From NCBI RefSeq assembly GCF_058153355.1, contig NZ_CM177019.1: 64,000 nt of DNA. One strand, 5' to 3'. Positions 16,993 through 17,570 of this stretch are shown here, one piece after another. Under the pieces are notes generated by a model. The model made no database searches. It saw nothing but the letters and a program-made list of their open reading frames with translations, and was not told the origin of the DNA. Numbering within the stretch: the first letter of the stretch is position 1; each line of letters starts with the position of its first letter. The translations under genes were made by a program, and so were the position numbers.

Positions 16993-17066
16993 GAGTCGCT
17001 ACCTGAAGGAGTTGGGCGGGCAGGTATGTAATTTTACTCGTCGTACTTAATTATGCCAACAAATTA

Positions 17067-17086
17067 TACTGGATAAAAAAACAGTT
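17067..17086 (-). promoter_or_regulatory. LexA operator (SOS box) of uvrB
   Basis: Minus-strand reading aaCTGTttttttatcCAGta fits CTGT-N8-ACAG; ~75 nt upstream of uvrB start. Confidence 0.7.
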
Positions 17087-17388
17087 CCCCACCATAATAT
17101 TTCTGTTACAGCGTAAACTCCGCTGTCAATCATGAGCAAAATTTACTCTGTGGCGAGATAAAACTCCGGCCTTACGGGGTTATCCCCAAAGCAACGGCTT
17201 TTTTAACATTTGTCAAGATGAGTGATGACAGTTTTATGGCAAGAGATGCCTCTTCAGTGACTGCCATTGCAATTATCTAACCAGTTAAAAAATAAAAGAT
17301 ATTTCTTTGAGCCGTCTTTAACGCCAATTCGCGTGCAAGCCGCGTATTCTCTCGCTTGCCTCGTGTTTTCTAACTCTAATACACATGG

Positions 17389-17412
17389 TTATCCACAGGA
17401 ATAGTGGATAAC
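17389..17412. promoter_or_regulatory. Inverted pair of DnaA boxes in the uvrB upstream region
   Basis: TTATCCACA at 17389..17397 and GTGGATAAC at 17404..17412. Confidence 0.5.
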
Positions 17413-17570
17413 TGTCTGCAGCCCCTATCCCCCGCCGCCTGGGCAATTCCCACATTCACCGCATGATGCGGAAGTAAAATTTTTTTCGTGATTATTTTAG
17501 AATTTAATTGGTTAAATTGCAGTCAACCGAAGACGCGATCTCGCTCGCAATTTAACCAAATACAGGATGA

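Follow-up and report, generated by a model that had tools for sequence, protein, structure and literature searches.

The DNA considered here is a stretch of 64,000 nucleotides from contig NZ_CM177019.1 (assembly GCF_058153355.1), below called the window, and our subject is what lies upstream of its uvrB gene, where an earlier note had pointed to a LexA site and an inverted pair of DnaA boxes. The window is from the chromosome of E. coli and comprises the moa-ybhK-uvrB-bio region in an orientation reversed with respect to K-12. In the list of open reading frames (ORFs), uvrB occupies 14971..16992 on the minus strand and is intact, with 673 codons; its product has 2 amino-acid differences from that of K-12 and 1 from that of strain 2013C-4282. 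Across the spacer from its ATG (16992) the neighbour is the 3′ end of bioD, which is also on the minus strand and ends at 17571, and the spacer between them, 16993..17570, is 578 bp long, as it is in K-12 MG1655. It is matched in 5424 of the 5426 complete E. coli genomes with 95–100% identity, 577 of its 578 bases are those of 2013C-4282, and it aligns without gaps to MG1655 with 13 single-nucleotide polymorphisms (SNPs) over 638 aligned bases (17586, 17570, 17566, 17527, 17467, 17458, 17418, 17272, 17252, 17176, 17106, 17089 and 17088). Not one of the 13 is in the SOS box or in any of the DnaA boxes described below, both elements being 100% identical, and the set of DnaA-like 9-mers (two mismatches at most) and the sole CTG-N10-CAG are likewise the same in the two spacers. 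Alignment with the K-12 promoter region had been proposed in that note as the check on its assertion of an expected configuration, and the layout is indeed that of K-12. What, then, has been kept?

The SOS box, LexA-box1, is at 17067..17086. It is TACTGGATAAAAAAACAGTT on the plus strand and, on the minus strand used by uvrB, AACTGTTTTTTTATCCAGTA, which is the uvrB SOS box as published (PMC3009722 Table 4; LexA-box1 of PMC6015884) and is base for base that of K-12, as the claim of an intact box required. In K-12 it is a high-affinity LexA site that has been footprinted, and reporter fusions also show damage induction (PMC6015884). With a weight matrix made from 17 published boxes (PMC3009722), that of uvrB being excluded, it ranks first in the whole 64-kb window at 22.9 bits, the runner-up having 12.4; the highest maximum in 300 simulations was 20.1, i.e., 0 of 300 reached the value of the site. 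The sites used for training score 13.1–27.6 bits with a median of 21.1, and so the uvrB site is within their range and above the median. Its palindromic core, CTG-N10-CAG, has an A/T-rich interior (CTGTTTTTTTATCCAG, 9 of 10 A/T) and is the only such site in the bioD-uvrB spacer. Searching the window for the full LexA consensus with three mismatches or fewer gave 0 matches, which says nothing against the site, as this test is too strict: even the real uvrB box departs from the idealised palindrome at 5 positions. The box lies 76 nt before the ATG of uvrB, and it shares bases with a TATAAT hexamer of the putative promoter, which was assigned by consensus scan and published text. PMC3009722 mentions a small ORF, ybhU, within which the uvrB promoter would fall; the present annotation of K-12 does not list it, a search of the literature yielded no more on it, and it was not placed.

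The second element is further from the gene. Within 17389..17412 (TTATCCACAGGAATAGTGGATAAC) there is an inverted pair of DnaA boxes separated by a 5-bp spacer, GGAAT. One box, at 17389..17397 on the plus strand, is a perfect TTATCCACA and the sole perfect DnaA 9-mer in the window; the other, opposed to it, is TTATCCACT at 17403..17411 on the minus strand. The pair is identical to that of K-12 and thus intact, as had been asserted, though the end assigned to it, 17412, is one base past the box. A third box, TAATACACA, is at 17377..17385 (+), 3 bp from the perfect box and in the same orientation. Strict pairs, i.e., boxes with at most one mismatch each and no more than 10 bp apart, number 1 in the window against 0.034 expected, and any such pair was present in just 16 of 500 simulations. 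In the core of a DnaA-reactivating sequence (DARS), boxes I and II have opposite orientations and are 5 bp apart, and box III comes after box II in the same direction, box II of DARS1 being a full consensus (PMC6868365). The ‘double DnaA box’ of DARS1 from chromatin immunoprecipitation sequencing is cTAATACACAtggTTATCCACAg (PMC11317965 Table 1), and it coincides exactly with window positions 17376..17398. From this correspondence the boxes can be mapped: 17403..17411 is box I (DnaA-box7), 17389..17397 is box II (DnaA-box6) and 17377..17385 is box III (DnaA-box5). The opposed arrangement of I and II, the spacing, the orientation of box III, the flank beyond it and the position in the bioD-uvrB spacer are all those of a DARS. 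The flank past box III is at about 17335..17376, its limits being approximate. A 42-bp flank is reported to be necessary for full ADP-release activity of DARS1 (PMC4585315), and here it is identical to that of K-12, because there is no SNP between 17273 and 17417. As judged from its match to the published element, the inverted DnaA pair upstream of uvrB is boxes I and II of DARS1.

Conservation of both elements is extensive. Of the 5426 complete E. coli genomes, 5423 have the 35-bp DARS1 core with 100% identity, and an 86-bp DARS1 segment is identical in 4454, with 1–4 mismatches in the remainder. For the SOS box, conservation within E. coli was gauged with a 96-bp promoter query and by reading nine genomes directly, in all nine of which both the SOS 20-mer and the DARS1 core are exact. 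Beyond the species, a scan of one genome per species with the pattern TTATCCACA-N5-AGTGGATAA yielded at least 120 loci. Among the 120 loci listed, uvrB is on the same side and strand in 53, of which 39 have it within 700 bp, and those linked to uvrB span Enterobacterales, Vibrio, Shewanella and Alteromonadales. At the position of box III, 50 of the 53 listed uvrB-linked loci have a sequence with two or fewer mismatches to the DnaA consensus. Of the 23 listed loci with a UvrB of 83% identity or more, 22 have a CTG-N10-CAG box 38–142 nt before the ATG. In an alignment of 24 Enterobacterales species the CTG...ATCCAGTAT positions of the SOS box are kept, and the conserved blocks are these SOS half-sites, box III with its flank (the flank in part, as blocks 17376..17361 and 17342..17333), TTGACAAATGTTAAAA (17216..17201) and an invariant 9-mer, TGGGGATAA (17188..17180), whose reverse complement is TTATCCCCA. 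About half of the head-to-head DnaA pairs with a 5-bp spacer among the loci listed do not adjoin uvrB; such pairs were seen in Vibrio, Alteromonas, Pseudomonas, Legionellaceae and even metagenome-assembled genomes of Firmicutes, and some of them are probably DARS2-type or other DnaA-cycle elements.

How does the region compare with what is known elsewhere? K-12 LexA-box1, at uvrBp1/p2, has the same 20-mer at the same distance from the ATG, and both −10 hexamers and the −35 of p1 are also shared. Boxes I–III of K-12 DARS1, their orientations, the 5-bp and 3-bp spacers and the flank are all identical in the window, no difference being found inside the element. The nearest SNP to it, 17418, is 7 bp outside box I, and there the window carries the majority E. 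coli allele and K-12 the minority one. DARS2, which is upstream of mutH, has the core logic in common, namely three boxes with I and II opposed. It differs in genomic location, in having a box II with one mismatch and in its added regulatory region, which binds IHF and Fis (PMC6868365); no region of that kind was noticed in the window, though no search aimed at it was made. The promoters repressed by DnaA (dnaA, mioC, nrdA and others) share with the uvrB locus the presence of DnaA boxes over the promoter and of two such boxes in tandem, 3 bp apart (the ‘double DnaA box’), but unlike them the uvrB locus has an extra, opposed box I, which confers the ADP-release function. Taken together, we are confident, as far as comparison of sequences allows, that the bioD-uvrB spacer is a conserved E. 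coli region with two independent elements that have each already been characterised, the LexA operator and DARS1. Both the region and its elements are known and ordinary.

On this footing a LexA dimer would occupy the SOS box, which overlies the spacer and −10 of the putative p2 just upstream of p1, and would hold down uvrB transcription until LexA self-cleavage, stimulated by RecA, followed DNA damage. Some 300 bp further upstream, ADP-DnaA would assemble on boxes I, II and III, and a head-to-head contact of the protomers on boxes I and II would bring about release of the ADP. That release by ADP-DnaA on boxes I and II is via head-to-head AAA+ contact, and that DnaA bound to box III aids assembly, is already in the literature (PMC6868365). 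Once its ADP is released, DnaA would rebind ATP and so be ready for another round of initiation at oriC. Since the DARS1 boxes overlap uvrBp3, the bound DnaA would also repress that promoter.

The promoters themselves merit some detail. The best match to the sigma-70 consensus in the region (10 of 12) is TTGGCA (17059..17054), a 17-nt spacer and TAAAAT (17036..17031), all on the minus strand and identical to K-12. We infer that this, spanning 17031..17059, is uvrBp1, in which case TATAAT at 17068..17063 would be the −10 of uvrBp2. The putative p1 start, at about 17024, would be some 31 nt before the uvrB ATG and some 31 nt downstream of the putative p2 start, spacing that agrees with the limits, −77 to +33, of the published p1-2 construct. 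The putative uvrBp2 (17063..17091, minus strand) would then have as its −35 the hexamer 17091..17086, TGGGGA in the window and TGATGA in K-12, with a 17-nt spacer that is filled by the LexA box, which also overlaps the −10; location of LexA-box1 between the −35 and −10 of uvrBp2 has been described (PMC6015884). For uvrBp3, also on the minus strand, the candidate −10 is GATAAC at 17394..17389, inside DnaA box II. At 17089-17088 the AT of K-12 is replaced in the window by GG, two bases that precede the SOS 20-mer by 2-3 nt on the uvrB strand and belong to the putative p2 −35. Upstream of them there is a change of T to A at 17106. The other control-region SNPs relative to K-12 that are outside the strong boxes are 17176, 17252, 17272 and 17418. 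The earlier note's assertion that regulation was left untouched therefore stands for the boxes but is slightly too strong for the region, as the change of AT to GG adjoins the SOS 20-mer.

Could these lineage changes, chiefly AT to GG, measurably alter uvrB expression in strains that bear the island described below? No more than 6 complete genomes have the exact 96-bp promoter haplotype, and each of the 6 carries the island; the GG allele is in the window and in 4 of the 4 closely related carriers read; the nearness of the change to the 20-mer, in a hexamer 17 nt upstream of the p2 −10, also favours an effect. The more diverged island carriers have AGG or AGA, and non-carriers ATG or AGG, so that at 17087..17089 ATG, AGG, AGA and GGG are all seen in E. 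coli, the window having the rare GGG, and this variability points to weak constraint. Both alleles are poor matches to TTGACA (2/6 versus 3/6), no change affects the LexA 20-mer, p1 or either −10 hexamer, and the p2 promoter is itself a putative one. A measurable effect is, accordingly, something that we regard as distinctly unlikely. AT to GG appears to be a lineage marker at a position under little constraint; an effect on function is possible but unsupported. The GG change also removes a TGA, and a 14-codon ORF in K-12 is thereby a 30-codon ORF in the window (17047..17139, minus strand), which is probably meaningless.

A different type of scepticism concerns the DnaA boxes. Might the inverted pair be simply a transcriptional operator of uvrB, with no part in the nucleotide cycle of DnaA? 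Wurihan et al. found that DnaA-box5-7 overlap uvrBp3 and that DnaA protects them, and a TG to CA mutation in the perfect box raised expression from p3 5.9-fold by derepression (PMC6015884), so that these boxes do serve DnaA repression of p3; furthermore the element stays tied to uvrB in many Gammaproteobacteria. To that extent the description of the stretch as a uvrB control region was right, but it was incomplete, since the pair belongs to the core of DARS1, and box III and the flank had been overlooked. These boxes make up the DARS1 core as defined, for which there are published effects: release of ADP in vitro is dependent on boxes I and II, and deletion of DARS1 lowers origin concentration and makes the bacteria less fit in the mouse gut (PMC6868365, PMC4585315). 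A simple operator has no need of opposed boxes I and II or of a spacer of exactly 5 bp, yet these are invariant in 5423 of the 5426 genomes. That the pair is an operator and nothing else is in our estimate very improbable. As to the motif matches being chance ones that lack function, loose patterns are common (CTGT-N9-CAG has 8 matches in the window against 5.8 expected and is uninformative alone, and pairs by a relaxed consensus, TTWTNCACA with up to one mismatch, are not significant, appearing in most simulations), but the matrix score, the strict-pair statistics, the identity to characterised sites and the near-invariance both in the 5423 genomes and across genera leave this with a negligible probability.

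No finding contradicts the reading of the spacer as a LexA operator plus DARS1 that are both as in K-12, but it has limits. One is that, in the cross-species alignment, the search pattern itself imposes conservation on the columns of boxes I and II; box III and the half-sites of the SOS box, though, were not selected by that pattern and are nevertheless conserved across Enterobacterales. Another is that some of the control-region changes, AT to GG and the SNPs at 17106, 17176, 17252, 17272 and 17418, could touch the low-affinity LexA-box2/3 or, in the case of 17418, the putative −35 of p3. Also, the minimal limits of DARS1 and the positions of the promoters were drawn from secondary sources and inference.

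Between p2 and p3 there are secondary DnaA-like boxes on the plus strand, TTATCCCCA at 17180..17188 and TTTTTAACA at 17200..17208, which probably belong to the low-affinity group, DnaA-box2-4, of PMC6015884. The first is invariant in all 24 of the aligned Enterobacterales species while its flanks vary, and adjoining it is the conserved block TTGACAAATGTTAAAA, within which there is a second such box. Perhaps TTATCCCCA and the block at 17201..17216 constitute a required accessory site that tunes DARS1 or couples DnaA occupancy to uvrB transcription, and perhaps, separately, the GG allele in the p2 −35 shifts SOS-controlled uvrB expression in the island lineage; we consider these readings unlikely. 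An accessory site at 17180..17216 would bear a loose resemblance to the DARS2 regulatory region.

As for structure, an Rfam scan of the spacer found no RNA family, whether the threshold was a permissive one or that for gathering, and the folding of a hairpin at 17459..17475 and of the region 17150..17200 is no different from that of shuffled sequences. Immediately after the bioD stop there is a perfect inverted repeat of 13-14 bp (17508..17560, TTGGTTAAATTGC...GCAATTTAACCAA). The hairpin beside the bioD stop folds at −20.9 kcal/mol (z −3.5), with one SNP relative to K-12 in its loop, and the repeat is likely to be the terminator of the bio operon.

On the other side of uvrB is the island, 10207..14970, whose 4764 bp between the stops of yvcK/ybhK and uvrB are in place of the 191-bp spacer of K-12, which contains repetitive extragenic palindromic (REP) elements. 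Homology to K-12 ends precisely at the ybhK/yvcK stop (10206) and the uvrB stop (14971-14973), so placement of the island 3′ of uvrB was correct. The island is in 24 of the 5426 complete E. coli genomes, as two versions about 4.5% apart. Its intact copies encode a 765-aa pentapeptide-repeat protein with a SopA-like C-terminus of the HECT-type E3 ligase class (SopA_C of Pfam, 1e-20; SopA and NleL of PDB, 1e-25 to 1e-28; below the NCBIfam subfamily cut-off), and this protein appears to be a distant SopA/NleL-like effector. The intact copies also encode a 550-aa protein for which Pfam, NCBIfam, PADLOC and PDB gave no match. As the proteins of the island had no match in PADLOC, it is not a known defence system. 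In the window both genes are broken, by single-base deletions near 11729 and 13994 and by C to A at 12224. All of uvrB separates the island from the control region, a distance of about 2 kb, and so no effect on the operators would be expected. The 3′ ends of yvcK and uvrB beside the island are unusually diverged from K-12, with 83% and 92.5% identity. A highly stable hairpin at 14853..14882 (−24.4 kcal/mol, z −5.6), between the convergent ends of uvrB and an island ORF, stands where K-12 has REP elements after uvrB, and there is no U-tract on the uvrB strand.

Elsewhere in the window there is a complete group II intron between ybhC and ybhJ (24583..26889, minus strand), with Rfam matches to D1-D4 and D5/D6. 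It encodes a 580-aa reverse transcriptase/maturase/HNH protein (24664..26406) and adjoins a REP/naRNA4 element (26947..27017); K-12 lacks an intron at this position. Between ybhL and ybhM is an extra gene of the Bax-inhibitor-1 family (4508..5248, minus strand), which is in 2013C-4282 and absent from K-12.

What is the import of all this? Apart from annotating the region correctly, it is small. The 4.8-kb effector island has left both the SOS box and DARS1 undisturbed. DARS1 carries no annotation in the RefSeq records examined, and the two elements together would be better labelled ‘uvrB LexA operator plus DARS1’, the DnaA boxes being those of DARS1, an element for control of chromosome replication. 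Its integrity bears not only on uvrB expression but, beyond that, on the timing of replication and fitness in the gut.
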